From Thermoanaerobaculia bacterium (lineage in GTDB: Bacteria; Acidobacteriota; Thermoanaerobaculia; Gp7-AA8): a stretch of DNA of 64,000 bases. Every line of letters begins with the position of its first letter. Position 1 is the stretch's first letter. The translations under genes were made by a program, and so were the position numbers. The notes under the pieces are model-generated. The model saw nothing but the letters and a program-made list of their open reading frames with translations. It was not told the origin of the DNA and ran no database searches. This document shows, one piece after another, positions 3,059 to 46,927 of the stretch. The DNA lies in NCBI GenBank assembly GCA_035996815.1, contig DASYJF010000040.1, forward strand, positions 41,792 through 105,791. Reading direction: 5' to 3'.

Positions 3059-3061
3059 AAG

Positions 3062-3335: not shown

Positions 3336-3348
3336 AAAAGGAGCCAAC

Positions 3349-4293: not shown

Positions 4294-4346
4294 TTCACGC
4301 GGAGATGCGGAGACGCGGAGAAAACAACCCCGCGGCTCCGCGTGAA
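4294..4346. terminator. Bidirectional hairpin between convergent genes, built from 3 x octamer YGCGGAGA
   Basis: TTCACGCGGAG 4294-4304 pairs with CTCCGCGTGAA 4336-4346. It lies between the stop at 4293 (+) and the stop at 4358 (-). Confidence 0.5.
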
Positions 4347-4357
4347 CCGGTCCCTCT

Positions 4358-5371
4358 TCAATTACTCAGTGCCGCCGCCCGCCCCCGCCCAACCGTACGC
4401 GCGGACTCCTGCCAGCCGAGTTGGATCACTTCGAAGTCGCTGCCTTTAATCGCGGAAAAGGCCGGGTTGAGGACGTCGTTATCCCATCGCGTGTCGTACG
4501 TTCCGCTCACGTACAGATCGCTGCCGTTGTCGGCGACGATCAGGCCGTAAGTTTTCATCGCCTGGAAAATGCGTCGCAGCGGTTCGGAGTAGGCGGAGAT
4601 GTCCTTCGATGCTTTCAGCCGGAGGCGCGCGCCCATCGGCAGCGCGCCGTGCGTCGATCCGGCGCGATGCGAGGCTGGAAAGACGTAGCCATTCGAGTGG
4701 CGGATGGTGACGCGAAACGCGTGGCGGATCGGAACGCCGCCGTACACCTCGTCGTAGCGGACCAGTCCCGGCAGAATCGCCAGCCCTGCCGCGTCGGCGC
4801 TCGTCCACCCTTCGGGACGACGCGCATTCGAATCGAGCGGGAACGTCGCGCCGGATCCTGCCGTCCACTGCGATCCGGTCCAATGCAGCGCGTAGAGCTC
4901 ATACAGAATGCGGTTGTCGCGATCGACGAGCAGCATGTGCCGGTCGCCATCCGCATTCGGATCGTTGCCGGCCAGTCCCCCTTCGATCCACTTCTGCTGC
5001 GTCTTCGCCTCCTCGGGGATCGGATAGCCGGGCGGACGTCCCGGCGCGGCGACATCGCTTTCATCGTTGTAGTCGAATGTCACCGGCAGAAGCGGCTGCG
5101 AGCCGGAGACGATGACAAACGGCATGCCGTAGATCGGCGCCGAGGGATCGTTGCTGTCGCCGCCGAAATCGGGATGCATGCCGCGGGTGGCGCCGACGTC
5201 GGCGATGAACGCATTGCTGTTCGGATCGACCGGCGCCGCGCTGATGTCCGCGTTCCACCAGTTGCCGGGCGGGAAGAGCGGAAGCGGCTGAGGTAGTACT
5301 CCGCCACGTTGGGGCGACTGCGCGAACGCTGCCGAGGAGAGGGCGAGAACGAGGAGGGCGAGGCGGGACAT
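4358..5371 (-). CDS. Secreted hypothetical protein
   Basis: Signal peptide MSRLALLVLALSSAAFAQS. Coding-like composition. The overlapping + strand ORF 4421..5296 is Arg-rich and looks like an artefact. Confidence 0.7.
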   Translation of the reverse strand: MSRLALLVLALSSAAFAQSPQRGGVLPQPLPLFPPGNWWNADISAAPVDPNSNAFIADVGATRGMHPDFGGDSNDPSAPIYGMPFVIVSGSQPLLPVTFDYNDESDVAAPGRPPGYPIPEEAKTQQKWIEGGLAGNDPNADGDRHMLLVDRDNRILYELYALHWTGSQWTAGSGATFPLDSNARRPEGWTSADAAGLAILPGLVRYDEVYGGVPIRHAFRVTIRHSNGYVFPASHRAGSTHGALPMGARLRLKASKDISAYSEPLRRIFQAMKTYGLIVADNGSDLYVSGTYDTRWDNDVLNPAFSAIKGSDFEVIQLGWQESARTVGRGRAAALSN

Positions 5372-5548
5372 GAAACGGATTCTCCTCGACTGCCACTAAA
5401 CGTTTGTGCCTGCCGTCACAGCGGGGCCGCGGTTTCCGAATGAGATTGGTCTCCGCTACAATACACAAGCTTCAAATAAGTAACGTAAATAAAACCGGCA
5501 GGGAGCGCCGGTCACCGCTCCCGCAAGCCATCCTAAGAGAGGTCTCCT

Positions 5549-8500
5549 GTGAAGCACATTCGCCTCATCGCCATCATTTGTCTTCTTGCCTCGGCCGCCT
5601 CGGCCACCGTCTTCCAGCCGCTTACCGACCGCCAGCTCGTCGATCGGTCCGACTCCGTCGTCATCGCCACGGTGCGCGATGCCGCATCGCGTGTTCGGAC
5701 GGACGGCTACGTCGTCACCGACTACCGCTTCGACGTCGAACAGACGCTGAAAGGAGCGGCGGCGGGAACGATCACCGTCAGCGAGATCGGCGGCGTGTCG
5801 GGATCGCGCTTCACGTTCATCTCCGACTCGGCGTCGTACACACCCGGCGAGCGGGTGATGGTCTTCCTCAAGAAACGCGGCGACGGAACGTACTTCACGA
5901 CCTCGATGGCGATGGGCAAGTTCTCGTTCACGCGCACCGCGCGCGGCGAGTCGGTCGTGACGCGCGACGTGTCGGAGCTGCGCGGCGATCCGGCGCGATT
6001 GGCGGATGGATTCGCGCAGTTTGTGAAGAGTGGTTCTCGCGACACGTATCAGGCGACGCTAACGCCGATTGCGAGCGCATTGCATCCAATTGCGCTCACC
6101 GCACCGTCGGCCTATTGCCTGAGGACGTCGTCAGGGCCGGGCGGATTTCCCGTGCGATGGGAAAACGGCGATACCGGAAGGACCGTACCTGTACTCACGA
6201 ACTCCTCAATGCCGTACAGCACGACGAGTGCGATTGCGGCCGGCGCTGCCGCATGGACCAATGATCCTGGCGCGAACATCACACTCACTCCATCCGGGAC
6301 GACTACAGCCTCCAGTGCTGATGGCAGCAACAGCATTTACATCTACCTGAGCACAACACAGGCAAACCCGCCCGGGATCTGCGACGGATCGCAAGCCTGC
6401 ACGCTGGGTTACGGCTCGACCTTTCATACGTTCGCGGGCGAGCAGTTCGTTGGCATCGTCGGCGCCGACATTTTCGTCCAGCCCACCGTCCCCGCTGCGG
6501 CGTTCGATGCACTCATCACACATGAGCTCGGACATGCGATTGGATTCCGTCATGCGAATGATGGGAACTCGCCTTCGTCCTCCACAGCTTTGATGTCATC
6601 CCCAGTCAATCAAGCCTTGGGTTCAAGCCTGCAGTCATGGGATGTCGAGGCGGTCGAAACCGTCTACGGCACCGGTCCCGTATGCCAGCCTCCGACCTCG
6701 GTCTCCATTTCCGGCGGCGGTACGTACCCATCCGGACAAACCGCCACGCTCACCGCGACCGTCATCGGAGGCAATGGCACCTTCACATTTGCCTGGTTCG
6801 AGGGCAACCTCAACGACACGTCGACACCGGTCGGAACGAACAGCAACACTTTCACTACGCCGCCGATCACGAGTTCGAAGAATTACTGGGTGCGCGTTAT
6901 GAATGGCTGCGGCACCGTGACGGCTACGACATCGGTGAATCTGCAGCCTGTCGGTCCGGGATGCACGCAGGTGAGCATTGCGGTGCAGCCTACCGCCTCG
7001 CAGCCGGTGAGTTCCGGCGGCTCGGTCACGCTTACAGTCACCGCGGGCGGAACGCCGCCATTCACCTATCAGTGGTACCAGGCCACGAGCACGCTCGACA
7101 CCAGCCATCCGGTCGGATCGAACAGCCCGAGCTTCACCACGCCCGCGCTGACGCAGCCGACGTCGTACTGGGTCAAAGTCACGAACGACTGCGGCGTCGT
7201 GAACAGCAACATCGCCGCGATCACCATCACCGGCCAGTGCATCCCGCCGTCGTTCTCCATTCAGCCGGCCAGTGCCACGATCGTGGCGGGATCGCAGACG
7301 TATTTGATCGCGTTCGCCAGCGGCGCGACTTCGTATCAGTGGTACCGAGGAAACGCGGGCGACACTTCCACGCCGGTCGCGGGCGTTGGGCCTTCGAACG
7401 ACCGCTGGATCAATCAGCTCTACATCGATCTCCTCGGGCGTCCTGCCGACGCCGCCGCACTCTCCACTCTCAACGCCCTGCTGGCCGGCGGCGCAACCCG
7501 CAACAGCGTCGCGTTGGTTGTGCTGACCTCGGCCGAATACCGCCAGCGATTGCTGACCGACTTCTACTCGACCTTCCTGCACCGTCCGATTTCGGCCGCC
7601 GAGGTCGGGTTCTGGATGCCGGCGTTCGCGTCGGGGATGACGGATGAGCAGATCGAATCGCAGATCCTCGCATCGCCTGAATACTTCGCGCTCGGCGGCT
7701 CCTCGAACTCGAGCTGGATCAACCGCGTCTACAACGAAGTCCTCGGACGTTCCCCCAGCAGCGCGGAAACGTCCGCAAATCTGACGCTGCTCGGCAGCAA
7801 CTCGCGGCTGAGCATCGCGCTCTCGATTCTCAACTCGCTCGAAGCCGCCAGCCACCGAGTCCAGCTGGGCTTCCCGCGCTTCCTGCACCGCAGCCCGACC
7901 GGTAGCGAAACGTCCGCATTCGTCGCCCAGCTGCAAGGCGGCGTCACCGACGAGCAGTTCCTCGCGCAACTTCTCGCCTCGGACGAATACTTCAACTTCG
8001 GCACGATCCTCTTCACCGGTCCGATCTCCGCCACGACCCGCTACTGGGTTCGCGCGACCAACGGCAATTGCGCCGGCGACAGCAGCGTGGCCACGCTCAC
8101 CGTTCCGCAATGCACGCTGCCGGTCATCGTGACGCAGCCCTCGAACGTGACGCTGACAGCCGGCGAGACGTTCTCCGTGGCGGTAATCGCGACCGGCGCG
8201 ACCTCGTACCAGTGGTTCCGTGCGTCGTCGGGTGATCCGTCGAACCCGGTCAGCGGCGCAACAGGCCCAGTCCTCACGAGCACCATCAACAACGTCGGTC
8301 CGACAGAGTTCTGGGTTCGCATCACCAACGAATGCGGCAGCACTAACAGCAACACCGTCACCGTGACCACGCAATGCGGAACGCGCGTGCCGGCGATATC
8401 GGGCCCGCCCATCGCTCCCTCGGCCACGAGCTACCCGATCACGTGGAACGGCAGCTCGCTGCGCGACGCGTCGTACGAATTGCAGGAAGCGACGAAGTCC

Positions 8501-10498
8501 GATTTCAGCGACGCGCAGACGATCCAGATCACCAGCCAGGTAGCCGGAGCCACCACGCGAACCTTCTCGCATACGGTGACCACCGATACGCGCTATTACT
8601 ACCGCGTTCACGCCGCGCCGGCGTGCGGCGGCAACTACGGAGCGTTCTCACTGGTCGCGAGCGTCCTGGTGACCGCGCCACAATCGTCGCGGCAGCCGAA
8701 TTTCAACTTTGCGCAGCTCCCCTGCCCGCCATCGCCCTGCACCATCACGCAGCAGATCTTCATCCCCGGCATCCCCACGAGCGGCAAGACGGCGCTCGCC
8801 ACGGGCGACACGTTCAGCGTCTCCTCGGACGAACCATTCATCACGATTTCGCCCTCCAGCGGATCGCTTCCAGCCGAAGGCGCCACCGTCACGGCGACGA
8901 TCGATCTCTCGCAGCTCGACGTCGGCTCGACGCAGGCCAGCCTCACGATCAACCGCGCGCAGGCTGCCGGCAAAATCGGCGCGCTTGGCGACCAGCCGCC
9001 AACCAACGTACCGGTATCGATCAGCGTCGTCGCGCCTGTCACGCCGACGCCGAAGGACCCGAACTCCGGATTCAACGCGCTGCTCATCCCGGCAATCGCG
9101 CACGCGGACGGCATCGGCTCGCGCTTCGTCAGCGACGTCCGCGTGACCAACACCGCCACGCAGTCGATCGACTACCAGCTCACCTACACGCCGAACGGCG
9201 CCGACGGCACCGTCACCGGTAAGCAGGTCACGCTCACCGTCAAGGCGGGCGAGACGAAGGCGCTCAACGACATCGTCAAAGACTGGTACGGCTCGGGCGT
9301 CCTCGGCGAAGCGCCGCAAGGCTCGCTCGAAATTCGTCCGCTCAACTTCGCGGGCAAGGACACCCCCAGCATCAGCCTGGCTACGGTCGCCGCCAGCCGC
9401 ACGTACAGCGTCGCGGCGACGGGCACCTTCGGGCAGTACATCCCCGCGCTGGCGTTGGTGAACTTCCTCTCGAAGGCGAGCGCGTCGAAGATTTCGCTAC
9501 AGCAGGTTTCGCAGAGCAGCGCCACGGGCGGCTTCCGCACGAACCTCGGCTTCATCGAAGGCTCCGGCCAGCCGGTCGATTTCGTGGCCACCCTGCTCGA
9601 TGACGCCGGCCACACGGTCGCCGAACGGGCCTATTCGTTAAAACCGTACGAATCGCAGCAGCAGCGGCTCGATCAGTTCTTCAGCGTCTCATCGATCACC
9701 GATGGGCGCGTGGAAGTGCGCGTGACCAGCGATACGGGCCACGTCAGTTCGTACGCCTCGGTCCTCGACAACACCACCACCGATCCGCTGCTGGTCTTCC
9801 CCGCCGATCCGGCCAAGATTTCCGCGAAGCGCTTCGTGGTGCCGGGCGTGGCGGAGTTCGACAATTCGTTCTCGAATTTCCACACCGACATGCGCATCTA
9901 CAATGGCGGAACGTCGCCCGTCGACGTGACGCTGGCCTTCACCGGCGCCAGCGTACCGAACAAAGTGAAGACGATCGGCGCGGGCGAAACGCTGGCGGTC
10001 GACAACGTCCTGCCGACGCTCTGGAACACCACCGGCGGCGGCTCAGTCGTGGCGACAACGGCGAATGAGTCGCAGCTCGTCGTCACCGCACGTACCTTCA
10101 GCCGTGACAAAACGAACGGTGGAACGTTCGGTCAGTTCATCCCCGGCGTTACCGCCGCGGAGGCAGTCGGCAACGGCGAGCGCGCGCTGCAGATCGTGCA
10201 GCTCGAGGAATCGCCCGCCTTCCGCACGAACCTCGGCCTCGTGGAAGTAACCGGCAGCCCCATCACCGTGGAGTTGCTCGCCTACACGCCCGACTCGAAA
10301 GTGGCCGCGCGCACGGTCGTGCCCCTCGGCGCAGGCGAGTACCTGCAGAAAGGCGGCATCTTCAAATCGCTCGGATTCAACAACGTCTACAACGGCCGCA
10401 TCACCGCCCGCGTCATCAGCGGCACCGGCCGCGTAGCCGCCTACGGCTCCGTCATCGACAACAGAACGACGGATCCGACGTACGTGCCGTCGCAGTAG
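5549..10498 (+). CDS. Giant secreted multidomain metzincin-type zinc protease (1649 aa) with Ig-like, DUF4214-like and Fn3-like modules and a duplicated C-terminal domain
   Basis: GTG start after AGAGAGG. Signal peptide. HELGHAIGFRH = HExxHxxGxxH (about 6521-6553). Repeated ..YQWY..TNxCG Ig-like modules. WINQLY/WINRVY..LGR repeats. Confidence 0.85.
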   Translation: MKHIRLIAIICLLASAASATVFQPLTDRQLVDRSDSVVIATVRDAASRVRTDGYVVTDYRFDVEQTLKGAAAGTITVSEIGGVSGSRFTFISDSASYTPGERVMVFLKKRGDGTYFTTSMAMGKFSFTRTARGESVVTRDVSELRGDPARLADGFAQFVKSGSRDTYQATLTPIASALHPIALTAPSAYCLRTSSGPGGFPVRWENGDTGRTVPVLTNSSMPYSTTSAIAAGAAAWTNDPGANITLTPSGTTTASSADGSNSIYIYLSTTQANPPGICDGSQACTLGYGSTFHTFAGEQFVGIVGADIFVQPTVPAAAFDALITHELGHAIGFRHANDGNSPSSSTALMSSPVNQALGSSLQSWDVEAVETVYGTGPVCQPPTSVSISGGGTYPSGQTATLTATVIGGNGTFTFAWFEGNLNDTSTPVGTNSNTFTTPPITSSKNYWVRVMNGCGTVTATTSVNLQPVGPGCTQVSIAVQPTASQPVSSGGSVTLTVTAGGTPPFTYQWYQATSTLDTSHPVGSNSPSFTTPALTQPTSYWVKVTNDCGVVNSNIAAITITGQCIPPSFSIQPASATIVAGSQTYLIAFASGATSYQWYRGNAGDTSTPVAGVGPSNDRWINQLYIDLLGRPADAAALSTLNALLAGGATRNSVALVVLTSAEYRQRLLTDFYSTFLHRPISAAEVGFWMPAFASGMTDEQIESQILASPEYFALGGSSNSSWINRVYNEVLGRSPSSAETSANLTLLGSNSRLSIALSILNSLEAASHRVQLGFPRFLHRSPTGSETSAFVAQLQGGVTDEQFLAQLLASDEYFNFGTILFTGPISATTRYWVRATNGNCAGDSSVATLTVPQCTLPVIVTQPSNVTLTAGETFSVAVIATGATSYQWFRASSGDPSNPVSGATGPVLTSTINNVGPTEFWVRITNECGSTNSNTVTVTTQCGTRVPAISGPPIAPSATSYPITWNGSSLRDASYELQEATKSDFSDAQTIQITSQVAGATTRTFSHTVTTDTRYYYRVHAAPACGGNYGAFSLVASVLVTAPQSSRQPNFNFAQLPCPPSPCTITQQIFIPGIPTSGKTALATGDTFSVSSDEPFITISPSSGSLPAEGATVTATIDLSQLDVGSTQASLTINRAQAAGKIGALGDQPPTNVPVSISVVAPVTPTPKDPNSGFNALLIPAIAHADGIGSRFVSDVRVTNTATQSIDYQLTYTPNGADGTVTGKQVTLTVKAGETKALNDIVKDWYGSGVLGEAPQGSLEIRPLNFAGKDTPSISLATVAASRTYSVAATGTFGQYIPALALVNFLSKASASKISLQQVSQSSATGGFRTNLGFIEGSGQPVDFVATLLDDAGHTVAERAYSLKPYESQQQRLDQFFSVSSITDGRVEVRVTSDTGHVSSYASVLDNTTTDPLLVFPADPAKISAKRFVVPGVAEFDNSFSNFHTDMRIYNGGTSPVDVTLAFTGASVPNKVKTIGAGETLAVDNVLPTLWNTTGGGSVVATTANESQLVVTARTFSRDKTNGGTFGQFIPGVTAAEAVGNGERALQIVQLEESPAFRTNLGLVEVTGSPITVELLAYTPDSKVAARTVVPLGAGEYLQKGGIFKSLGFNNVYNGRITARVISGTGRVAAYGSVIDNRTTDPTYVPSQ

Positions 10499-10511
10499 GT
10501 TGCGTCTAACA

Positions 10512-10547
10512 GACCAATCGCCGGCAAAGAATCACCGGCGATTGGTC
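10512..10547 (+). terminator. Stem-loop immediately after the giant protease gene
   Basis: Perfect 13-bp stem GACCAATCGCCGG / CCGGCGATTGGTC with a 10-nt loop. No clear U-tract. Confidence 0.5.
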
Positions 10548-10574
10548 ACAATCTTCCTCGAGGACACTTTCGCC

Positions 10575-10799
10575 ATGAATCCCGCCGGCTTCGCACTGTT
10601 TCTTTTCGTCGCCTCGATCAACACCTTTCCAGTGCAGCAGGCGGTGCTGACGCCTCCGCCGATCGTCTCGCCCGACCCCGCGCCGCCGCATCCGCTGAGG
10701 CCGCGCGATCCCGAAGCCAAGTTCAATACGCCGACGGTAGCTCTGGCGCGCGTGATCGGATCAATCGCGCAAGGCGTTCTGCGCGATCACGGTCACTGA
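10575..10799 (+). CDS. Small hypothetical exported protein (74 aa)
   Basis: The ATG at 10575 gives MNPAGFALFLFVASINTFPVQQ, a signal-like N-terminus. No recognisable domain. Weak call. Confidence 0.3.
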   Translation: MNPAGFALFLFVASINTFPVQQAVLTPPPIVSPDPAPPHPLRPRDPEAKFNTPTVALARVIGSIAQGVLRDHGH

Positions 10800-10844
10800 G
10801 GCGCGGTCTCCGGCTACACTCCGCGCGACTCAGCGGAGGAACGT

Positions 10845-11687
10845 ATGCCGTGTGATGCGGGGATGCTCGCGAAGAACGAGCTTTTTGAGCAGCTCACCGA
10901 GGAAGATCGGACCGAATTAGCGAAAGTCGTCGATCGTCGCGAACTGAAAGCGGGAACGACACTCTTTCAGGCTGGCGAGCCGGGCGAATCGCTGTTCGTC
11001 GTCAGCACCGGCGAGGTCGAGCTGTTCATCAAAGACACGGCGGGACAAAAGATCGTTCTCACGGTCGCACGCGACGGCGCGATTTTTGGCGAGCTGGCTC
11101 TCCTCGACCGCGGAGCGCGCACGGCCACGGCGATCGCGCTCGTCGACACCGAACTGCTGGAGCTCGACCGCGACGACCTGCTGCTCCTCTTCCAGAAGAC
11201 ACCCGAGGCCGCGGTGAGGTTGCTGGCGGCAGTCGGGCACATGACGCGAAAAGCGGACGAGCTCCTGCAGACGCGCGTCTCGCGCAACGTCAACATCGAG
11301 GTCGAGGAAAATCTCAGCACGCTGCAGAAAATCGCCGACTGGATCGCCTGGTTCAGCGGCAGCATGCCCTTCCTGCTCATCAACCTCATTTGGTTCGGCG
11401 CCTGGATCATCGTCAACGTCTTCCCCCTCGGCATCCCCGCGTTCGATCCGTATCCGTTCGGCCTGTTGACGATGATCGTCTCGCTCGAAGCGATCTTCCT
11501 CTCCTGCTTCGTCCTGATCAGCCAGAACCGCCAGGCCGAAAAGGATCACGTCCGCTCCGACGTCGAATACGAGATCAACATCAAAGCGGAGCTGGAAGTC
11601 GCCCACCTCCACGAAAAGACCGACCGCATCTACACCGAAATGCTGGAGCGGTTCGCCACGATGGAAGGGCTGCTCAGGAAGGGGTAG
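10845..11687 (+). CDS. Cyclic-nucleotide-binding domain protein fused to a DUF1003-type membrane domain
   Basis: GGAGG RBS. FGELALLDRGARTATAIA cNMP-binding signature. C-terminal DPYPFGLLTMIVSLEAIFLSCFVLISQNRQ is DUF1003-like. Confidence 0.8.
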   Translation: MPCDAGMLAKNELFEQLTEEDRTELAKVVDRRELKAGTTLFQAGEPGESLFVVSTGEVELFIKDTAGQKIVLTVARDGAIFGELALLDRGARTATAIALVDTELLELDRDDLLLLFQKTPEAAVRLLAAVGHMTRKADELLQTRVSRNVNIEVEENLSTLQKIADWIAWFSGSMPFLLINLIWFGAWIIVNVFPLGIPAFDPYPFGLLTMIVSLEAIFLSCFVLISQNRQAEKDHVRSDVEYEINIKAELEVAHLHEKTDRIYTEMLERFATMEGLLRKG

Positions 11688-11691
11688 CGGT

Positions 11692-11724
11692 TATACGCAG
11701 AGTTCATCAACTCTGCGTATATTT
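11692..11724 (+). terminator. Rho-independent terminator after the cNMP/DUF1003 gene
   Basis: 13-bp perfect stem TATACGCAGAGTT / AACTCTGCGTATA, 4-nt loop, followed by TTT. Confidence 0.65.
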
Positions 11725-11728
11725 GGCC

Positions 11729-12796
11729 GTGGCCTACGTTCGACTGCCGGAATCCGTTCAGACGCTCTACGCGGAACTGCTCGATCAGGTCCGCACCGCC
11801 GACGCGGCAGCGGTCCTCGGTGGTGTGCGCGGGTCGTTCGTGTCAAAGGAGATTCACGGCCGCGCGTATTGGTACTTGCAGAAAAACGGCGGCGCCACGA
11901 AACGCCAGATCTACCTCGGACGAGACACACCGGAACTTCGCGCGTGGATGGAGAGAGGTACGGAGCAACGCGCCGATACCAAGCCCGACGAGAACCACCG
12001 GCGCGATCTCGTCGCGATGCTCGCCGCGGGAGGCATGTTCCGCGATTCCGCGTCGAAGTCGACCGTGCTCCACATTCTTGCGGACGTGAGCGTTTTTCGC
12101 GCGGGCGGAGTACTGGTCGGAACGGAGGCCTTCAGTTGCCTTGCAAACATGCTCGGCGTCACGTTTGAGAAAGAGAGTGTGCGCACGGCCGATATCGACG
12201 TCGTGCATGACACGAACATCCCCATCGTTATCGACGAACGTCCGGATGAAAGTGATCGCCTCCTTCGCCTGCGCGCGGCAGACCCTGCATTCTTCGCGGT
12301 GCCTGGACTCGATCCGCGCGACGCGAGCACATCGTTCCGCGTGCGCGGTCGCGACCTCGGTGTCGACTTCCTCACTCCCGATCGCAGCCACGGCCGCAAC
12401 ACGAAACCAGTTCGGCTGATCCACCTCGGGATCGCCGCACAGCCGTTGTACGGACTCGACTACCTGATCGAAGACGCCGTGGACGCGGTCGTCGTCGGCG
12501 GAAGCGGCATCCGCGTCAACGTCCCCTCGCCTGCTCGGTTCGCATTTCACAAACTGTGGGTCTCGACCTCGCGAACGGTGTCCGAGGCCGCGAAGTCGCG
12601 AAAAGATGTCCGGCAGGCAACCCAGATTCTCGAAATCCTCGCCGACGATCGGCCGCGCGACATCACCATCGCCTACGCCGCGCTTCAGAAACGGACGCGG
12701 ATGACGCGCGCCGCGAACGAGAAACTCAAATCGTTCGATCCCGACTTGTTGAAGCGACTCCGCCCGCTCCTCAAGCCTTCTCCAGCAAGTCCTTGA
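11729..12796 (+). CDS. Nucleotidyltransferase-fold protein resembling the GSU2403 family (start uncertain: TTG 11723 or GTG 11729)
   Basis: The upstream part of the track ORF overlaps the previous gene in another frame. No ATG near the terminator. Family assignment is from memory of LPESVQxLYxELL... and the ...FHKLWVS... C-terminal region. Confidence 0.55.
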   Translation: MAYVRLPESVQTLYAELLDQVRTADAAAVLGGVRGSFVSKEIHGRAYWYLQKNGGATKRQIYLGRDTPELRAWMERGTEQRADTKPDENHRRDLVAMLAAGGMFRDSASKSTVLHILADVSVFRAGGVLVGTEAFSCLANMLGVTFEKESVRTADIDVVHDTNIPIVIDERPDESDRLLRLRAADPAFFAVPGLDPRDASTSFRVRGRDLGVDFLTPDRSHGRNTKPVRLIHLGIAAQPLYGLDYLIEDAVDAVVVGGSGIRVNVPSPARFAFHKLWVSTSRTVSEAAKSRKDVRQATQILEILADDRPRDITIAYAALQKRTRMTRAANEKLKSFDPDLLKRLRPLLKPSPASP

Positions 12797-13835
12797 ACTG
12801 CTCCTTGTCGATCGACTTGTCGTAGGCGGCGCGGGCCGTGACCAAGCCGGCTTCGTAGAGGCGGCGGATGGAGCCGTCCATGTCGATCATCCCTTCCTTT
12901 ACGCCGGTCTGGATCGCACTCGTGACCTGCGAGGTCTTGCCTTCGCGGATCATGTTGCCGATGGCTGGCGAGGCGAAGAGGATCTCCACCGCGGCGATGC
13001 GGCCGCCGCCGACTTTCGGCATGAGCTGTTGCGCGACGACGCCGCGAATCGTTTCGCCGAGGACGTTGCGGACGCCTTCCTGTTCCGAGGCGGGGAAGAC
13101 GCTGATGATGCGATCCATCGTCTTTGCGGCGTTGTTCGTGTGCAGCGTACCGAAGACGAGCGTGCCGCGCTCGGCGGCGGAGAGGGCCATGGCGATCGTC
13201 TCGAGGTCGCGCATCTCGCCGACCAGGATCACGTCGGGATCTTCGCGGCCGGCCGACTTCAGCGCCTCGGCGAACGACTTCGCGTGCGTGCCGATCTCGC
13301 GCTGGTGCACGAGGCATTTCTTGTTCGGATGAACGAACTCGATCGGATCTTCGATGGTGATGATGTGCAGTCCGCGCGTCTCGTTGATCAGATCGATGAT
13401 GGCCGCAAGCGTCGTCGATTTGCCGGAGCCAGTCGGACCGGTCACCAGCACCAGACCACTGCGGATCGAGGCAATGCGGCGCACCGGATCGGGAAGTCCG
13501 AGCTGTTCGAGCGTCATGATCTTCGTCGGGATGACGCGAAAAACCGCGCCGCCGCCGCGCTGCTGGCGGAAGAGATTGACGCGGTAGCGGGCCACGCCGG
13601 GGATCTCGTACGAGAAATCGACATCGCCGGTCTGCTGGTATTCGTCCCACAGTCTGGCCGGCGTGACCGGCTTGATCATCTCCGTGAAATCGCCCTCGGT
13701 CAGCGTGCGGTAGCGGATCGACTCCATCGTTCCCGACGCGCGCAGCATCGGCGGACGGCCGACGGTAAGATGAAAATCGGACGCGCCGCGATCATTCATC
13801 AGCTTGAGGAAGCGATCGATTTTCTGCATCGCCAT
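12771..13835 (-). CDS. pilT: Type IV pilus twitching-motility ATPase PilT
   Basis: GASDFHL, Walker A GPTGSGKST, REDPDVILVGEMRD, GTLHTN. Full-length 354 aa. Confidence 0.9.
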   Translation of the reverse strand: MAMQKIDRFLKLMNDRGASDFHLTVGRPPMLRASGTMESIRYRTLTEGDFTEMIKPVTPARLWDEYQQTGDVDFSYEIPGVARYRVNLFRQQRGGGAVFRVIPTKIMTLEQLGLPDPVRRIASIRSGLVLVTGPTGSGKSTTLAAIIDLINETRGLHIITIEDPIEFVHPNKKCLVHQREIGTHAKSFAEALKSAGREDPDVILVGEMRDLETIAMALSAAERGTLVFGTLHTNNAAKTMDRIISVFPASEQEGVRNVLGETIRGVVAQQLMPKVGGGRIAAVEILFASPAIGNMIREGKTSQVTSAIQTGVKEGMIDMDGSIRRLYEAGLVTARAAYDKSIDKEQFKDLLEKA

Positions 13836-16339
13836 TACGCTTTCCCTCGGGCGATGAACTCCGCGCTGACCATCGACTCGAAGTCTTCTTTCTTCAGGGC
13901 CGCCATGTACGCCGTCTCGGCGCTGATCTGTTCGCGGCGCAGGAGGTCTTTGAGCGCCTCATCGAACGTCTGCATCCCGAGCGAACGGCCGATCTGCATC
14001 GCCGAGTAGATCTGGTACGTCTTCTGGTCGCGGATCATCGTGCCGATGTTGCTGGTGCCCTTCAGCACTTCGAAGGCAGCGACCTGGCGGCGCCCTTCCC
14101 TCGCCGGCAGCAGACGCTGCGCGATGCAGTAGCGCAGCGACTCGGAGAGCGACGCCCGAATCTGCGGCTGTTCGTCGGCGGGAAAACTGGAGAGGATGCG
14201 GTCGATCGCTTTCGGCGCGCTGGTCGAGTTCAACGTGCCGAGGACGATGTGACCGGTCTCGGCGGCGGTGAGTGCGAGAGTGATCGATTCGTTGTCGCGC
14301 AGCTCGCCGATCACGATCACATCCGGATCTTCGCGGAGCGCCGCGCGCAACGCGCGCGCGAACGATCCCGTGTGCGAGCCAACCTCGCGCTGATTGATGA
14401 GGCAGTTCTTGAAGGGATGGACGAACTCGACCGGATCCTCCATCGTCAGGATGTGATCGTTGCGCGTCTCGTTGAACAGATTCACGAGCGCGGCTAGCGT
14501 CGTCGACTTGCCGGAGCCGGACGGGCCGCAGACGAGCACGAGTCCCTGGTGATAGTCGGCGATTTCAGAAAGATGCGCGGGTAGTCCCAGGTCGACGATC
14601 GTCGGCGGCTTTTCGGGGATGACGCGGAAGACGCCGTTGTAGCCGTGATGGTCGTAGAAAACGTTCGCGCGATAGCGGCCGCCTTGTGGCACGACGTAGC
14701 AGAAATCGATCTGCGTCTGCGTCTGCAGCGTCGTCCACTGCGCCTCGGTGAGCACTTCCTTCAGCATCGACTCCGTCTGCGCCGCGGTGAACGATTCGCC
14801 CTGCGCGCGCAGGAGATCGGCGGAGAGTCGAACGATCGGAGGCTGGCCGACGGAGAGGTGAAAATCCGATCCGCCCTGGTTGCGCGTGGCGATCAGCAGC
14901 GTGTTGAGACGCGGCTCGCCCTGCGCGCCAGCGACGGTCAGCGCCGCTTTGCGAATCGCGTCGATGCCTGATTGTGACTGGCGATCCGTCGCCGCGAGCT
15001 CGTCGAGAATTTCGATCGCGTGCGTGCGGACGCCGCGATCGGGATCGTTCTGCGCCACGCTCGTCAACGCATTGCGAACCTGCGGATGCTGAAAGTTCTT
15101 CAACGCCAGCATCACTTCGACGCGAACGTCGGGCAGTGGATCGGCGAGCATCTTTCCGAGCGCGGGCAATGCGCGCGGATCGCCGATTCGACCGAGCGCC
15201 TCGACTGCGGCCCACTTCATGTCGGGATCGGCGAGCGTCGCGACGAGCGGTTCGACGGCGCGCGGATCTTTCAGCCGGCCGAGCATGTCGGCGGCGGAGA
15301 TGCGAATCCACCAATCAGGATCGCGGAGCAGCTGGACCGTTGCAGGGACGATGCGGACATCTTCGAATCCGCCCGCGACGGCCATCGCGCCCGAGCGCGT
15401 GTCGGGATCGGGATCGTGCAGCAGTTCGATGACCGGCTCGATGAGCGCGGCGCCAAACTCGCGCAGCGAATCGAGCGCGCGGTCGCGGATGAAGCCGGCC
15501 AGCGTGCTGGAGAAACGGATGTAGCGCTTGATGACGCCGGCCGGATCGCCGATGCCGAGGAGGATTTTCAGGACGGCCGTGCGCGTGGCGGCGTCGCCGG
15601 AAGCAAGCGCAGGAAGGAGGCGATCGGCGAATGCAGCGCCTTGTCCGGCGGCAAGCTTCGTCATTGCCTCCACGATCGTTTGCTGCACCGCGTAGCCGGC
15701 GCGCGGCAGCGCTTCGATCAGCAGATCGAGCGAATGCTGTGGCGCTTTCGCGGCCAGGACTTCGATCGCTTTGTCGCGAATGGCCGGAGTGGGATCGGCA
15801 GCCAGACGGCGCCAGCGGCGCGCTGCGTTCTCATCGATCTCGAGCGACGCGAGCTTGTTGAGAAACGGAACGCGCTCCTCGGGATTGCCGGTCGACCCAA
15901 GCTGCCAGAGCACCGGTTCCAGTTGCCGCGACATCGGCGCCTCGGCGAGCAGACGCCGCACCGATTCCTGCAACTCGCGCGTCTCCTTCGTCTCCTTCGG
16001 CGGCGGCGCGAGAAGCTGAATGAGCCGCGCGTCGATGCCGGGCAGGCCGAGCGCAAAGAGAGCCGCGGCCGCGGCGCGCAGCGCCTGCTCCGGTTTCCCT
16101 TTCGATTCGGCGAGAAAGACATCGAGCGTTTCCGCATCGCCGATGCGCGGCAACACGCGCGCGGCACTCTCGCGGAGCGCGCGATCGGGGCGGAACAGCA
16201 TCCAGATGACGTCGCGCGCGCGCACGCCGTCCGCCGATTCGACGCGGCCGAGCAGCTCGTCGCGCTCTTCCTGCGTCGCGTACGACTTCGCCGCGAGACG
16301 CTTCACCGCATCGCTGACTTCGTTGGAGAAGAGCGCCAT
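13835..16339 (-). CDS. HEAT-repeat (~480 aa) N-terminal domain fused to a PilT/PilU-type ATPase
   Basis: Repeated DPDxxVRxxAxxALGxIGDPRA HEAT/PBS-lyase-like units, then GGSDFHLS, GPSGSGKST, REDPDVIVIGELRD. Its TAA overlaps the pilT ATG by 1 nt. Confidence 0.85.
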   Translation of the reverse strand: MALFSNEVSDAVKRLAAKSYATQEERDELLGRVESADGVRARDVIWMLFRPDRALRESAARVLPRIGDAETLDVFLAESKGKPEQALRAAAAALFALGLPGIDARLIQLLAPPPKETKETRELQESVRRLLAEAPMSRQLEPVLWQLGSTGNPEERVPFLNKLASLEIDENAARRWRRLAADPTPAIRDKAIEVLAAKAPQHSLDLLIEALPRAGYAVQQTIVEAMTKLAAGQGAAFADRLLPALASGDAATRTAVLKILLGIGDPAGVIKRYIRFSSTLAGFIRDRALDSLREFGAALIEPVIELLHDPDPDTRSGAMAVAGGFEDVRIVPATVQLLRDPDWWIRISAADMLGRLKDPRAVEPLVATLADPDMKWAAVEALGRIGDPRALPALGKMLADPLPDVRVEVMLALKNFQHPQVRNALTSVAQNDPDRGVRTHAIEILDELAATDRQSQSGIDAIRKAALTVAGAQGEPRLNTLLIATRNQGGSDFHLSVGQPPIVRLSADLLRAQGESFTAAQTESMLKEVLTEAQWTTLQTQTQIDFCYVVPQGGRYRANVFYDHHGYNGVFRVIPEKPPTIVDLGLPAHLSEIADYHQGLVLVCGPSGSGKSTTLAALVNLFNETRNDHILTMEDPVEFVHPFKNCLINQREVGSHTGSFARALRAALREDPDVIVIGELRDNESITLALTAAETGHIVLGTLNSTSAPKAIDRILSSFPADEQPQIRASLSESLRYCIAQRLLPAREGRRQVAAFEVLKGTSNIGTMIRDQKTYQIYSAMQIGRSLGMQTFDEALKDLLRREQISAETAYMAALKKEDFESMVSAEFIARGKA

Positions 16340-39824: not shown

Positions 39825-41408
39825 TCAGGGCCGCGAGTTCTGGCAGTTTCTTGGTGAACAGACGTATCGCGCCAGCGACGTCTGCTCTGGTACCACCGCG
39901 GAAAACCTCCAATACCGACCCGCGGCGGCGCGAGCGGCGGATAGTCGACATCGCTGCGGCGCTGTAATGGCTCCACGCAAGAGGCAGAAGACGTCAGACA
40001 GAACTGTTTGATTGTCAGCGACATACGCGTGGCCGAGAAGGCTTGTGTCGACCGCAGAGACGTCGATGGTGTCGACTCCGGCAACGATCGTGATGTTTTT
40101 CCCTGCTTCGCCGGCACGCGGGGACTGATGAAGCCTCTTAGAAGCGTTAAGTGCTTTGTCGCGGGAAGAGGCATACAAGGTGACGTGGCTGGACAGCCTG
40201 AGAAGCGCCGGCGCAAGGTCACGCTTGAAAACATCGGCGTCAATATCCGGCGCAGCCAAAACGACTTGGCTAAACTTAGCGCGCGTTTCAGGCGTCGCCA
40301 ACCTGGCCAACGCCTGCGCCATGACCCTGTTCCCCATGCTGTGAGCAACTACGTGGATCGCGCGAGCTCCGGTCCGTTGTGCCAAATCGTTCAGAAATGC
40401 TGCGAGATGCGGCACCGTCCAATCGACGGTGCCTTCGTCTGCGCTGTAGTCAGCGAGCGCTCCGCCGGAGGGCCAGCTATAGGCAATCGCTGCTCCGTCA
40501 AAGCCGAGGTCATATTTTATCTGGGCCGTGCGCCGCACGGCGTCAGCGAATGTGTTCTTGTATCCATGAATGAATATAAATACTTCTCCACGATCGGAGG
40601 CGGCGATACTGCCGCCCAGCTTAGCGTAGAAGTCAGAGGCTCGTTGAGGCTGCACAGCGAGAAGTACGACATGCTTTTTCGGATCCTCACGACGCTCGAA
40701 CCTCCAGATCGACGGCTCTTCAAGCTCCCCCAAACGGTGTTCCCTTGGAATGCTCACACGCGCAATGCCAAGCCGCAACTGCTCATTTCCGCGCGCACTA
40801 CCGAAGAGACGGGCCGGAGCGGTCTCTCCGCTGTACGCGCGGTCGGTAGCGTAGTAAACGTTGACAACTGCGTAGTCTTTGCCGGGCGCGACGTCGACGG
40901 GGCCGTGTTTATGGTTCCTGTGAGGCGTGCGTGTCGTCCCGCTGGTGGTGGTTGCGGGTGGAGGTGGAGGTGACGGCGGCGCCGACAGTGGGGGCGGTTC
41001 CGGACGTGGCACAGGAGGTGGCAGAGGTGGAAGGGGCGGCGGCGGTAGCTGATCTGAGGGGATTGGGGGGGGAGGCGGCAGTAATTCCGGATTCGATGTT
41101 TCTTGCAACCGGAGCGTAATTCTTTCGGTTCTACCAACGGCGACGTCCACCGACCTGTTCGTGACGGCGAAACCCGCCATTTCTGCTCGGAGCATCGCCT
41201 GGCCAGGAGGAAGGGTCAGCCTAGCAATGCCGTCGGCATCGGTGACTGTTTTTACCATGCGCCCGGCAGCGATGGCGGCAATTACGGTCACGCCTGGAAG
41301 CGGACGACCGGAAGTGTCGACGACAGCGACGGCGAGCGTTACACGGACTTGCGCCGATGCCGTGGTGCAGCAAAGAATAAGGACGAACCATCTAGAAACT
41401 TTACGCAT
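39825..41408 (-). CDS. Secreted protein: carboxypeptidase-regulatory-like domain, Pro-rich linker, DUF900-type alpha/beta hydrolase
   Basis: Signal peptide. DADGIARLTLPPG CarboxypepD_reg-like motif. A PPPP linker. FIFIHGY...AHSMGN hydrolase motifs. Confidence 0.75.
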   Translation of the reverse strand: MRKVSRWFVLILCCTTASAQVRVTLAVAVVDTSGRPLPGVTVIAAIAAGRMVKTVTDADGIARLTLPPGQAMLRAEMAGFAVTNRSVDVAVGRTERITLRLQETSNPELLPPPPPIPSDQLPPPPLPPLPPPVPRPEPPPLSAPPSPPPPPATTTSGTTRTPHRNHKHGPVDVAPGKDYAVVNVYYATDRAYSGETAPARLFGSARGNEQLRLGIARVSIPREHRLGELEEPSIWRFERREDPKKHVVLLAVQPQRASDFYAKLGGSIAASDRGEVFIFIHGYKNTFADAVRRTAQIKYDLGFDGAAIAYSWPSGGALADYSADEGTVDWTVPHLAAFLNDLAQRTGARAIHVVAHSMGNRVMAQALARLATPETRAKFSQVVLAAPDIDADVFKRDLAPALLRLSSHVTLYASSRDKALNASKRLHQSPRAGEAGKNITIVAGVDTIDVSAVDTSLLGHAYVADNQTVLSDVFCLLRGAITAPQRCRLSAARAAAGRYWRFSAVVPEQTSLARYVCSPRNCQNSRP

Positions 41409-43354: not shown

Positions 43355-43914
43355 GGGTGGGGAGTCGGGGGTCGGGAGTCGGGGGTCGGAGGTCGGAGGT
43401 CGGGTGCCGGATACTGTTACTGATTTGTCGCCCGAGGTACACTGACGCCCCCACACAGCGCTGCTGCGCTCGCATCTTCTCTCTGCCGTCAACGCCACAC
43501 GACCGCGATGAGCGAAAGTATCTACGAACGATTGGACGCTTGGAAAAAAGCTATGCGCCTTGCTACCGCCACCTATGCAGCAATGCAATCATTTCCACGT
43601 CATGAGCTGTATGGGCTTACCGCGCAAATGCGCCGTGCCGCGATATCGGTACCGTCCAACATCGCCGAAGGCCGAGGGCGCGACACAAAGCGGGACTTTC
43701 GACAATTCGTCATTCGAGCACGCGCATCCGCGTTCGAGTTGCGGACTCAGATCACGATAGCGGAATCGCTGAACTACTTTTCTAGAGAAGAGGCGAAGCA
43801 CCTGATCGAGCAATCCGACGACGTTCTTCTGGTGATCAACGGCCTGATTCGCCACCTCACGAGGAGCGTCACTGGGTTCCGGGGGCCTTTTCGACTCCCG
43901 ACCCCCGACTCCCG
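43355..43914 (+). mobile_element. G-family palindrome carrying a four-helix-bundle gene as cargo (cassette 1)
   Basis: G arm 43355-43410 (GGGGAGTCGGGGGTCGGGAGTCGGGGGTCGGAGGTCGGAGGTCGGG). Conserved box CCGAGGTACACT 43432-43443. The cargo ORF. C arm 43892-43914 (CGACTCCCGACCCCCGACTCCCG). Confidence 0.6.
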
Positions 43915-43927
43915 TTCTACCCTTTGA
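43508..43927 (+). CDS. Four-helix-bundle protein (23S rRNA intervening-sequence protein / Avd-like family)
   Basis: Hallmark LYGLTAQMRRAAISVPSNIAEGRGR...F..A..S..EL.TQ sequence. Visibly lower GC than its neighbours. The 3' end reads through the C arm and overlaps the pyk 3' end by 11 nt. Confidence 0.8.
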   Translation: MSESIYERLDAWKKAMRLATATYAAMQSFPRHELYGLTAQMRRAAISVPSNIAEGRGRDTKRDFRQFVIRARASAFELRTQITIAESLNYFSREEAKHLIEQSDDVLLVINGLIRHLTRSVTGFRGPFRLPTPDSRSTL

Positions 43928-45347
43928 CGCGATGCACGCGCAGCAGATTTGTTTTCGCGCGCTGATAGATCGGCGATCCCATCAGTATGACCAGGCGATC
44001 CCCCGGAACGACGATGTCGCGGCTGAGCAGGAACTCGTCGACGCGATCGACGATCTGCTCGTGATATTCGCCGACGTCGCGGAGGACGAACGGCTGCACG
44101 CCCCAGAGAATGTTCATCCGCCGCGCGACCCAGGTCGAAGGCGTCAGCGCGATGATCGGCTGCTTCGGACGGAACTTCGACATCAGCCGCGCCGCGAATC
44201 CGGTCTGCGTGAAAACGATGATGAACTTCGCATCCATCTGCTGCGCGGCGTAGTTTGCGGCACCGGCCAGCGCGTCGGTGAACTCGTCGATCTCCGAGGA
44301 AACGCGGTACGGTTCGCGGCTGCCGGCGACCTGAAACTCGCGGTTCTGTTCGGCGGCCATGATGATGCGGGCCATCATCTGCACCGCTTCGACGGGATAC
44401 ATGCCGGACGCGGTTTCCGCCGACAGCATCACCGCATCGGAGCCGTCGAAGATCGCGTTAGCCACATCCGAGGCTTCGGCGCGCGTTGGGCGCGAATTCG
44501 TCGTCATCGACTCCAGCATCTGTGTCGCCGTAATCGCGAAGCGGCCCCAAATCGCGGCCCTGTGCAGAACCTGCTTTTGCACGATCGGCACGGCCTCGGG
44601 CGGAAGTTCGACGCCGAGGTCGCCGCGGGCGACCATCACGCCGTCGCTGACGTCGAGGATGTCTTCGAGCGCGTCGATGGCCTGCGATTTTTCGAGCTTG
44701 GCGACAACATTGATCTCATCTCCGCCGAGGCCGTGAAGAAGAGAGCGCAGCTCGACGATGTCGCCGCGGCGGCGGATAAAGGACGCGGCGATGTAGTCGA
44801 GGCCATTCGCGACGGCGAAAGCAACATCCTCGCGATCCTTCTCCGTGATGGCCGGAATCGTCAGTTCCGTATCGGGGAAGTTCATCCCCTTCTTCGACGA
44901 GATCGGCCCGCCGTGAATGACGCGCGTCAGGACTTTCGCGCCATCGACCGCGGCAACGACGAGCTCGACCAGCCCATCATTAATGAGGATGCGTTGCCCG
45001 AGTTGCACTTCCCGAGGCAGCGGCGTGAAGGGCGTAGAGACGATCGACGCGTTGCCCATCAACGCCTCGGTCGTGATCGTCAGCATCTGTCCCGTCTTCA
45101 GGTGAATGACGCCATCGACCTCACCGATGCGCAGCTTCGGCCCCTGGATGTCGGCGAGGATCGGGATGTACTTCCCGTTATCCATCGAAACACGCCGGAT
45201 GATCTCGATGAGCCGTACGCGATCGGACGGCGTTCCGTGCGAGAAGTTCATCCGAAACACATCGACGCCCGTGGTCCGCAGGCGAAGGATGAGATCTGCG
45301 GACGCGCACGCGGGGCCGTGCGTTGCGATGATTTTGGTTCGGCGCAT
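43917..45347 (-). CDS. pyk: Pyruvate kinase
   Basis: MRRTKIIATHGPA, full-length 476 aa with typical PK motifs (MVARGDLGVE). Confidence 0.95.
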   Translation of the reverse strand: MRRTKIIATHGPACASADLILRLRTTGVDVFRMNFSHGTPSDRVRLIEIIRRVSMDNGKYIPILADIQGPKLRIGEVDGVIHLKTGQMLTITTEALMGNASIVSTPFTPLPREVQLGQRILINDGLVELVVAAVDGAKVLTRVIHGGPISSKKGMNFPDTELTIPAITEKDREDVAFAVANGLDYIAASFIRRRGDIVELRSLLHGLGGDEINVVAKLEKSQAIDALEDILDVSDGVMVARGDLGVELPPEAVPIVQKQVLHRAAIWGRFAITATQMLESMTTNSRPTRAEASDVANAIFDGSDAVMLSAETASGMYPVEAVQMMARIIMAAEQNREFQVAGSREPYRVSSEIDEFTDALAGAANYAAQQMDAKFIIVFTQTGFAARLMSKFRPKQPIIALTPSTWVARRMNILWGVQPFVLRDVGEYHEQIVDRVDEFLLSRDIVVPGDRLVILMGSPIYQRAKTNLLRVHRVKG

Positions 45348-45778
45348 CAGCGTTTTCGATATATCACGGGGATTTGGGGGGGGGGGGTGGGGGGTGGGGT
45401 GTGGGGAGGTGAATCAACAGCTTCCGTGAGATGCCGAATGAGACCATTCAAGAGGCGAACGACCGCTTCGGAGTGTTTCGTCAGCCGAACGAGATCATCG
45501 CTCGTCGCGTAGTGCAGAGCATCCGCAATGCTGATTTGAGTTTGTAACTCGTACAACGATCCGCGCGCTTGGACTGCGAATCGGCAAAAGTCGCGCTTCG
45601 AAGCGCGGCCTCGTCCCTCGGCAATGTTGCTCGGCACTGACACTGCCGCTCGTCGGAGTTGCGAGGTAAGTCCGTAAAGCTCGTGTTTTGGAAATGTCTG
45701 CGTGACTTTATAGGTGTCGATCGCTAGCTGCATAGATTCTTTCCACACCTCAAGCCGTCGATAGATGCTGTCGGTCAT
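45347..45778 (-). CDS. Four-helix-bundle protein (second, diverged copy), stop/start coupled to pyk
   Basis: MTDSIYRRLEVWKESMQLAIDTY...LYGLTSQLRRAAVSVPSNIAEGRGR, roughly 55-60% identical by eye to the 43508 product. Its TGA overlaps the pyk ATG (TGATG). Confidence 0.8.
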   Translation of the reverse strand: MTDSIYRRLEVWKESMQLAIDTYKVTQTFPKHELYGLTSQLRRAAVSVPSNIAEGRGRASKRDFCRFAVQARGSLYELQTQISIADALHYATSDDLVRLTKHSEAVVRLLNGLIRHLTEAVDSPPHTPPPTPPPQIPVIYRKR

Positions 45779-45890
45779 ACTTTGGCTGGCGCGCGGAGAG
45801 CCGACGCAGAGGTGGGAGACGGTTAGTGTACCTCGGCCGCGGCTTCGCCGCAGCTGAGCTCCCACACCCCACCCCCAACTCCCCACCCCC
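45368..45890 (-). mobile_element. G-family palindrome carrying a four-helix-bundle gene as cargo (cassette 2, inverted relative to cassette 1)
   Basis: On the minus strand: G arm = 45890-45861, box CCGAGGTACACT = 45836-45825, cargo ORF, C arm = 45409-45368 including a C12 run (45376-45387). Confidence 0.6.
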
Positions 45891-46927
45891 TAAACGCTCG
45901 CAGTCAGCGCGGGTTGCAATGACCGGCCCACTACGCGCGCGATCGCATCGCACTCGCGGACGATCTGGGCGAAGGCTTCCGGCAGGATGGCTTGCGGACC
46001 GTCGGAGAGCGCTTCCTCCGGCTTGTGATGGACTTCGATCAGTACGCCGTCGGCGCCAGCCGCAATCGAGGCGCGCGACATCGGTGCGACTTTGTTGCGC
46101 TTGCCGGTGCCGTGACTCGGATCGACGAGGACCGGCAGATGGCTGATGCGCTTGATGGCCGGGATGATGGAGAGGTCGAGGGTGTTTCGCGTGTGGTCGG
46201 CAAACGTCCGCACACCGCGCTCGCACAGGATCACGTTGTAGTTGCCCTCGGCCATGATGTATTCGGCCGACAGCAAAAGCTCTTCGAGAGTGGCCGACAT
46301 CCCGCGCTTCAGCAGTACCGGTTTCCGCGCGCGGCCGGCCATCTTCAGCAGCGAGAAGTTCTGCATGTTCCGCGCACCGATCTGGATGCAGTCGGCGTAT
46401 TTGTCGACCAATAGCAGCGCCTCGTTGTCGATCGCCTCGGTGACGATGGGGAGATCGAACTCTTCCCGGACGCGCGCCAGAATTTCGAGTCCTTCCTCGC
46501 CGAGTCCCTGAAACGAGTACGGCGACGTGCGCGGCTTGTACGCGCCGCCGCGGAAGAGCTGCCCGCCGGCGTTCTTGATGCCCTCAGCAATTGCGCGGGC
46601 CTGATCGAGCGACTCGACCGCGCACGGACCACCGACGACGATGATTCCGTTGCCGCCGACGTCCACGCCACCAACATTGATGATGCTGTCATCCGGACGC
46701 GCTTCGCGGCTGACCAGCTTGTACGCGTGCGAGACACGAATGACTTCTTTGACGCCCGGATAGTTCTCGAGAACCTCGGGATCGGCTTTCCCCGGCTTGC
46801 CGGTGATTCCGATGGCAGTGCGGTTCGCGCCTGGGATGGCGTGAGCCTTGAGGCCCATGCGCTCAATGTGGCGGACGACGGCTTCGATTTGATCGGGCCG
46901 TGCACCGGCCTCCATGACGACGAGCAT
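45890..46927 (-). CDS. aroF: 3-deoxy-7-phosphoheptulonate (DAHP) synthase, type I-beta with an N-terminal ferredoxin-like regulatory domain
   Basis: GPCAVES, KPRTSPYSFQGLG, CERG, DPSH motifs. ~75-aa N-terminal extension. Confidence 0.88.
   Translation of the reverse strand: MLVVMEAGARPDQIEAVVRHIERMGLKAHAIPGANRTAIGITGKPGKADPEVLENYPGVKEVIRVSHAYKLVSREARPDDSIINVGGVDVGGNGIIVVGGPCAVESLDQARAIAEGIKNAGGQLFRGGAYKPRTSPYSFQGLGEEGLEILARVREEFDLPIVTEAIDNEALLLVDKYADCIQIGARNMQNFSLLKMAGRARKPVLLKRGMSATLEELLLSAEYIMAEGNYNVILCERGVRTFADHTRNTLDLSIIPAIKRISHLPVLVDPSHGTGKRNKVAPMSRASIAAGADGVLIEVHHKPEEALSDGPQAILPEAFAQIVRECDAIARVVGRSLQPALTASV

Follow-up and report, generated by a model that had tools for sequence, protein, structure and literature searches.

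The G12/C12 run in front of a pyruvate kinase gene is probably the end of a heptamer-repeat arm plus a single T>G, and not an evolved phase-variation tract

Phase variation by slipped-strand mispairing at homopolymeric contingency loci is a well-known phenomenon in Neisseria, Haemophilus, Campylobacter and Bordetella. A second described system comprises the intervening sequences of 23S rRNA that carry a PF05635 open reading frame, in which an inverted repeat forms a stem that is excised by RNase III. The literature on PF05635, TIGR02436 and IVS-protein cassettes yielded passing mentions only. A third body of work that bears on long G/C runs is of a technical nature. The change from GGT to GGG was found to be the strongest systematic error of Illumina sequencing, in studies performed on older four-colour instruments (Meacham et al., 2011, PMC3295828), and inverted repeats were found to cause series of miscalls as well as false SNPs and gaps in assemblies (Nakamura et al., 2011, PMC3141275).

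The run studied here lies in a stretch of 64 kb (hereafter the window, i.e., the whole stretch of DNA that was analyzed) and comprises 12 G on the plus strand, or 12 C on the minus strand, at positions 45376–45387. An earlier note on this DNA had placed it at these coordinates, which are exact when read from the letters of the window. It is the sole homopolymer of more than 9 nt in the window; from base composition alone (62.6% GC) about 0.08 G/C runs of at least 12 nt are expected, and one is present. Apart from it, just two homopolymers exceed 7 nt, a C9 (34983–34991) and a G8 (41065–41072). An uninterrupted tract of at least about 8 nt in or next to a gene, as is typical for contingency loci, is present at this locus in this assembly only.

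The earlier note had further claimed that the length of the run sets the relationship between a four-helix-bundle gene and the downstream pyruvate kinase gene (pyk). We rebuilt the tract with 8–16 bases and translated it from the ATG at 45778. With 12 C, the product comprises 143 aa and ends ...PPPQIPVIYRKR*, while its TGA (45349–45347) shares the A with the ATG of pyk (45347–45345), resulting in the overlap TGATG. With 11 C, a product of 137 aa ends ...PPPKSP* at a TGA at 45366–45364. With 13 C, the rebuilt sequence encodes an in-frame fusion with pyk of 620 aa. The predicted effects on the reading frame, namely a TGA overlapping the ATG, an earlier TGA and a fusion, were thus reproduced by the rebuilt tracts. 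However, the stop codon of the 11-C frame had been put 30 nt upstream of pyk, whereas the rebuilt tract gives a gap of 16 nt (19 nt from start to start).

Three genes on the minus strand form the surroundings of the run: a DAHP synthase gene of the aroF type (45890–46927), which lies upstream of the cassette described below, the PF05635 gene (45347–45778; 23S rRNA IVS protein or four-helix-bundle protein, hereafter IVP), and pyk (43917–45347), which encodes the domains PF00224 and PF02887. The assignment of the IVP protein is based on a match of 127.1 bits to PF05635 (gathering cut-off 33.8, E-value 3.9e-37) that covers model positions 2–106 of 106, and its orthologues begin M[ST][DE]SIY. This gene is enclosed by an inverted repeat with arms of 33 nt each that are 88% complementary. 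The 5′ arm (45861–45893, minus strand) is G-rich on the mRNA strand and starts at the stop codon of aroF (TAG, 45892–45890), while the 3′ arm (45373–45405, minus strand) is C-rich on the mRNA strand. Read on the plus strand, the 3′ arm consists of TTT followed by the heptamers GGGGGGG, GGGGGTG, GGGGGTG and GGGTGTG, and the reverse complement of its partner consists of TTA followed by GGGGGTG, GGGAGTT, GGGGGTG and GGGTGTG in the same register. The C12 run is the outermost end of the 3′ arm. In the heptamer register its length amounts to 7 + 5, i.e., the degenerate heptamer GGGGGGG and the first five G of the following GGGGGTG, and the 3′ arm can be aligned to the partner arm free of gaps only with a run of 12 nt. 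In the predicted fold of the mRNA both arms pair to a single long stem whose loop is the gene (z = -4.4). Next to the arms, AGCGTTT at the end of aroF and AAACGCT before the pyk ATG are complementary (45893–45900 with 45350–45357), and this pairing extends the predicted stem to within 2 nt of the start codon of pyk. The additional pairing is found in some orthologues (e.g., L173) and is weaker in others.

Besides its arms, the cassette comprises two short boxes. The first, GTGATATATC(C/G)AAAAC (16 nt; 45352–45367, minus strand), lies shortly before the pyk ATG and includes the TGA at which the 11-C frame ends. It is kept in all orthologues with small variations (AAAC or AAAAAC, and one C in the contig L162). 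The second, CCGAGGTACACT (45825–45836, minus strand), lies between the 5′ arm and the start of the IVP gene, is invariant in 11/11 orthologues that reach that far and is shared with a second cassette (43432–43443); it may serve the cassette as promoter or as signal for processing. On the other side of pyk lies a second PF05635 gene with perfect arms of 22 nt, and at least eight further heptamer-repeat hairpins are scattered through the window.

Orthologous loci were found via exact-protein look-ups in which the DAHP synthase and PF05635 homologues served as queries. Employing pyk as anchor delivered a single match of 80% among species-representative genomes, which is cut off inside pyk, while the remaining matches there and all matches among metagenome contigs had at most 49% identity. 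The exact-protein look-up of the window's pyk gave no match, which in hindsight is explained by a His at codon 10 that is private to the window (see below). In total, 15 orthologous aroF-IVP-pyk sequences from about 10 lineages (L162 to L176) were obtained from soil assemblies of JGI, ENA and NCBI, several of them labelled Thermoanaerobaculia. The pyk DNA of the orthologues is 84–90% identical to that of the window, and the longer contigs continue with an inverted second IVP gene followed by a CarboxypepD_reg gene. Judged from these sequences, the cassette is conserved at the aroF-pyk locus in a clade of Thermoanaerobaculia-like soil bacteria. Another arrangement was observed in L161 (3530–6038; ENA ERZ25039594 contig_24078, 1.06 Mb), the DAHP synthase protein of which is identical to that of the window in 345/345 aa at about 91% DNA identity. 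After its stop codon, hairpin, IVP gene and pyk are absent and a FAD oxidoreductase of 473 aa is found instead. The region downstream of this DAHP synthase gave no match to the 64-kb window, and synteny consequently ends exactly at the start of the 5′ arm.

The comparison of tract length among relatives, which the earlier note had proposed as a check, revealed no conserved slippery tract. The longest C-run in the 3′ arms of the 15 orthologous sequences is 4–6 nt, every orthologous arm that ends at AAATC reads A-CCCCC-AAATC, and all arms ending ...ACCCCCAAATC have T at the equivalent of 45381. The closest relative is L162, an independent JGI contig that equals the window at 4,119 of 4,123 nt (99.90%) without gaps, although both possibly derive from the same or sibling samples and may not be fully independent populations. 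Its tract reads CCCCCC-A-CCCCC (C6-A-C5), with the length of 12 nt and the frame unchanged, and belongs to a perfect (GGGGGTG)x3 array. Furthermore, an 856-nt contig (10.8x) of a 94% identical strain, X5, crosses the tract with unique flanks on both sides; it has T at 45381, 45386 and 45389, and its tract is free of indels. Thus, neither L162 nor the X5 contig nor any of the 15 orthologous sequences reproduces G12. What makes the run uninterrupted is a single base, 45381, with G on the plus strand of the window as against T in L162 and the X5 contig. GGGGG-T-GGGGGG, as part of (GGGGGTG)x3, appears to be the ancestral and otherwise universal sequence at this place, and a single T>G at 45381 would fuse the two G-blocks into G12. 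The proposal of a slippery homopolymer that sets or switches the relationship between IVP gene and pyk finds no support in this comparison: the tract is a homopolymer in this assembly only and is interrupted in L162 and about 10 orthologous lineages.

A different concern is the assembled length of 12 itself. We considered that it might be wrong and rejected this idea: L162 and X5 keep the 12-nt register without indel, and 7 + 5 fits the partner arm. The register is independently supported because both relatives keep it, while the uninterrupted run depends entirely on the base at 45381. As far as the nearest relatives tell, the 12-nt register and the TGATG overlap are correct and common to them.

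If the window is compared to L162, four differences are found (45381, 45361, 45324 and 45319), all of them within 63 nt at or beside the arm, while the remaining 4,060 nt of the alignment are identical; neither assembly is clean here, given that the T of L162 is located about 77 nt from its contig end and that the base at 45361 is private to L162. Position 45319 is a second base private to the window, 62 nt from 45381. It turns codon 10 of pyk into CAC (His), where L162, X5, X16 and 11 orthologues have CTN (Leu), within the conserved N-terminal motif IATLGPA. This His is probably a local assembly error. In addition, the duplex of the arms is weaker in the window than in L162 (-81.9 vs. -86.8 kcal/mol) because the T>G removes a base pair.

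Both described types of Illumina error are reflected at this site. A reference T that follows GG is called G (GGGGG[T>G]GGGGGG if compared to L162, X5 and the orthologues). Moreover, the site lies in an inverted repeat, discordant bases cluster around it and assemblies have gaps there. Two further orthologues, L166 and L173, which are independent short-read assemblies, contain G10 runs in their 5′ arms, between the aroF stop codon and the CCGAGGTACACT box, in place of the GGGGGTGGGG found in eight other orthologues. As the 3′ arms of L166 and L173 still carry the complementary A, the T>G is uncompensated there, as it is in the window.

The probable source run, X1, which contains 85% of the sampled words of the region, was compared as Logan contigs. 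These contigs end at 45310 and restart at 45403, and none spans the tract, which is touched by G-rich unitigs of 31–46 nt only. Furthermore, X1 is not among the runs that carry the window's words for 45296–45375. The L162 contig ends close by, at 45305. Over the tract, X1, X14, X15 and X16 mostly deliver G-rich or poly-G unitigs of 31–46 nt with depths of hundreds to thousands, which are uninformative on its length. At 45376–45406, summed unitig depths range from about 2,000 to 14,000 in X1, X2, X3, X4, X14, X15 and X16, and the G-rich or poly-G unitigs on the arm continue as pure G, as observed in every soil run examined. Poly-G piles of this kind are typical of the dark-cycle artefacts that two-colour Illumina chemistry produces, and 31-mers resembling poly-G that map to the arm are a hazard for k-mer assemblers.

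Taken together, we are confident, though short of certain, that the run represents the end of a repeat arm plus one T>G and no evolved phase-variation tract. Regarding the G at 45381, we infer that a systematic GGT>GGG miscall or an assembly artefact beside the hairpin is its rather likely origin, while a private point mutation has a substantial chance of being the correct explanation, if somewhat below even. Either way, the run is no tract evolved for phase variation. The earlier note had also listed the run as a hot spot of sequencing error. This aspect has become the likeliest explanation, however in the form of a T>G substitution and not of an error in length.

One might envision that the T>G is real and recent and has created a hypermutable C12 by accident. 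In this scenario the population would be a mixture of cells with 11, 12 and 13 C, and IVP tails as well as the IVP-pyk geometry would differ between cells at a site that is accidental and not selected. The presence of the run in an assembled contig of 106 kb is consistent with this idea, runs of 12 G/C are known substrates of slippage, and the -1 product (..KSP*, 137 aa) is a natural tail in L166–L168 as well as in several members of the 90% cluster of the window's protein, so that such a variant would be tolerated. However, the G at 45381 occurs in no independent sequence, its context is that of a textbook miscall, the second implausible private base, pyk His10, is in close vicinity, and no contig of X1, the probable source run, spans the site. 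We thus regard a hypermutable tract of this kind as unlikely. A genuine G would make the C12 run physically prone to slippage, however it arose. That a real G and a newly acquired C12 together constitute a nascent contingency locus on a central glycolytic enzyme is, in our view, quite improbable. If true, the tract would lie at the sole place of a conserved hairpin cassette where one base more or less determines what becomes of ribosomes that have passed the 3′ arm: they would end on the pyk start, stop 16 nt short of it, or synthesize a fusion of four-helix-bundle protein and pyruvate kinase.

A homopolymer that has evolved as a phase-variable switch, with translational coupling, uncoupling and an IVP-pyruvate kinase fusion as its states, would be a still stronger claim. 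Its frame arithmetic is correct, and the overlap of stop and start codon is kept in most orthologous lineages, so that the geometry may matter. However, the homopolymer is absent from all relatives including the 99.9% identical one, and a repeat of differing lengths in related strains, as known from contingency loci, was not found. The position of the tract argues against a switch as well. The Pfam domain of the IVP protein ends about 30 codons before the stop codon, the tract lies in the non-conserved tail about 20 codons past the domain end, and the last 22 codons (DSPPHTPPPTPPPQIPVIYRKR) are the translation of the C-rich arm plus a short spacer. No reading frame of the tract touches the PF05635 domain. 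Thus, no frame inactivates the IVP protein, and a frame change does not switch the product on or off, since the domain ends before the tract.

The tails of related proteins point in the same direction. Those of the 12-C and the 11-C frame are both natural among orthologues. Within the 90% cluster of the window's protein, four members end ...PTPKSP* and one ends ...VIYPKRQ*, while slightly more distant relatives end ...PRDISKR*. Close relatives hence use two of the three tail frames (..VIYRKR* and ..PKSP*) in addition to the ..PRDISKR* variant, and the Pro/Thr/His tail is consequently not a conserved protein sequence but a translation of the arm of low complexity. The differences in frame between orthologues result from the number and sequence of the heptamers in the arm and from a short indel in the run of A that precedes the ATG, and not from the length of a homopolymer.

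The fusion predicted for 13 C was sought with the IVP part of the hypothetical 620-aa product as query, while long candidates were allowed. Among the long candidates scored from a collection of 5.8 billion proteins, no IVP-pyk fusion was detected: 31 long PF05635 proteins were recovered, none of them with a pyruvate kinase domain and none more than 54% identical. Based on these results, we consider an evolved switch to be extremely improbable, and a homopolymer by which the relationship of IVP gene and pyk is set or switched is not supported as a biological feature. In the 31 long proteins, which mostly form singleton clusters, the PF05635 part is joined to an unrelated neighbour, e.g., an acetyltransferase, PHP or release-factor domain. 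Another relative, P0020 (158 aa, 71% identical), continues in a different frame for about 50 nt beyond the start of pyk. Cassette ORFs which leave through their arm thus seem to read occasionally into the adjoining sequence.

The overlap of stop and start codon, to which the earlier note had drawn attention, is in contrast real and is found again in most orthologues. In 8/10 orthologous lineages the stop codon of the IVP gene overlaps the ATG of pyk, as TGATG or TAATG in seven and as ATGA in one, while in the other two lineages the IVP gene ends at a TGA 16 nt upstream of the pyk ATG. The distances from domain end to pyk ATG (83, 80, 77 and 68 nt) differ by multiples of three. A stop/start overlap conserved in orthologues is the hallmark of overlapping gene pairs and is found here; its conservation in 8/10 lineages would be suggestive only, as the lineages are related and the search was blind to fusions. 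The 25 nt before the pyk ATG show no Shine-Dalgarno-like sequence. One might speculate that ribosomes translating the PF05635 gene would unzip the 3′ arm and then pass to pyk by termination-reinitiation. Such a hand-over is plausible, yet it would belong to the cassette and not to the homopolymer.

Alternatively, the run could act at the level of nucleic acids, either with the G-rich arm as a G-quadruplex or as spacer or -35 element of a pyk promoter situated in the GTGATATATC box, and the tract length would then tune the transcription of pyk. At least four G-tracts (G12, G6, G4 and G4) are indeed found within 31 nt on the plus strand, and the box TGATATAT upstream of pyk, which is kept in all orthologues, resembles an extended -10 element. 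However, a consensus scan of 45250–45950 gave neither a sigma-70-like promoter nor a terminator, the arms pair strongly in every orthologue (-76 to -98 kcal/mol), and the mRNA is predicted to fold into the single stem described above. Moreover, the homopolymer is not conserved, so that any such role would be that of the arm and not of the run. To a tuning of transcription by tract length we consequently attach next to no weight, and the end of a repeat arm plus one T>G remains our preferred explanation of the run.

This explanation has consequences beyond the locus. Where genomes contain many G-rich heptamer hairpins, their short-read metagenome assemblies produce what look like long G/C homopolymers. 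The G12 described here and the G10 runs of two further assemblies mimic phase-variation tracts, while they are one T>G off the consensus in a known miscall context. Consequently, we suggest that screens for contingency loci in metagenome-assembled genomes should require either a tract that is conserved in relatives or support from raw reads. The interesting biology is found in the surroundings of the run: a PF05635 gene in a heptamer-repeat stem that is kept between aroF and pyk in about 10 lineages.

If compared to known systems, the locus resembles homopolymeric contingency loci in its uninterrupted 12-nt G/C run within an ORF, where a change by one base shifts the frame. However, the tract is not a repeat in any relative, and among the assembled sequences compared (L162, X5 and the orthologues) no variants of tract length were seen. 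In addition, it is situated in a non-conserved 3′ tail instead of early in the gene and cannot switch the protein off. The resemblance to Illumina miscalls extends to a T read as G after a series of Gs, here within a 33-nt inverted repeat, to discordant bases that cluster beside the repeat, and to short-read contigs that break there (Meacham et al., 2011, PMC3295828; Nakamura et al., 2011, PMC3141275). The defining signature of such miscalls is, however, a strand-specific discordance of reads, while the present case is known from assembled contigs alone. With coupled gene pairs (UGAUG, AUGA, UAAUG) the locus shares the IVP stop that overlaps the pyk ATG, in the window as well as in most orthologous lineages. 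In contrast to such pairs, two lineages end the IVP gene 16 nt upstream, and P0020 reads about 50 nt into pyk. The overlap thus seems to be common and not obligatory, and the coupling itself is putative. Finally, as in 23S rRNA intervening sequences, a PF05635 gene is flanked by inverted repeats and occupies the loop of the long stem that they form, a stem which is predicted here. In contrast to these sequences, the element resides in a protein-coding operon between aroF and pyk instead of an rRNA, its arms are tandem heptamers, and its ORF reads through the 3′ arm to end on the start codon of the next gene.
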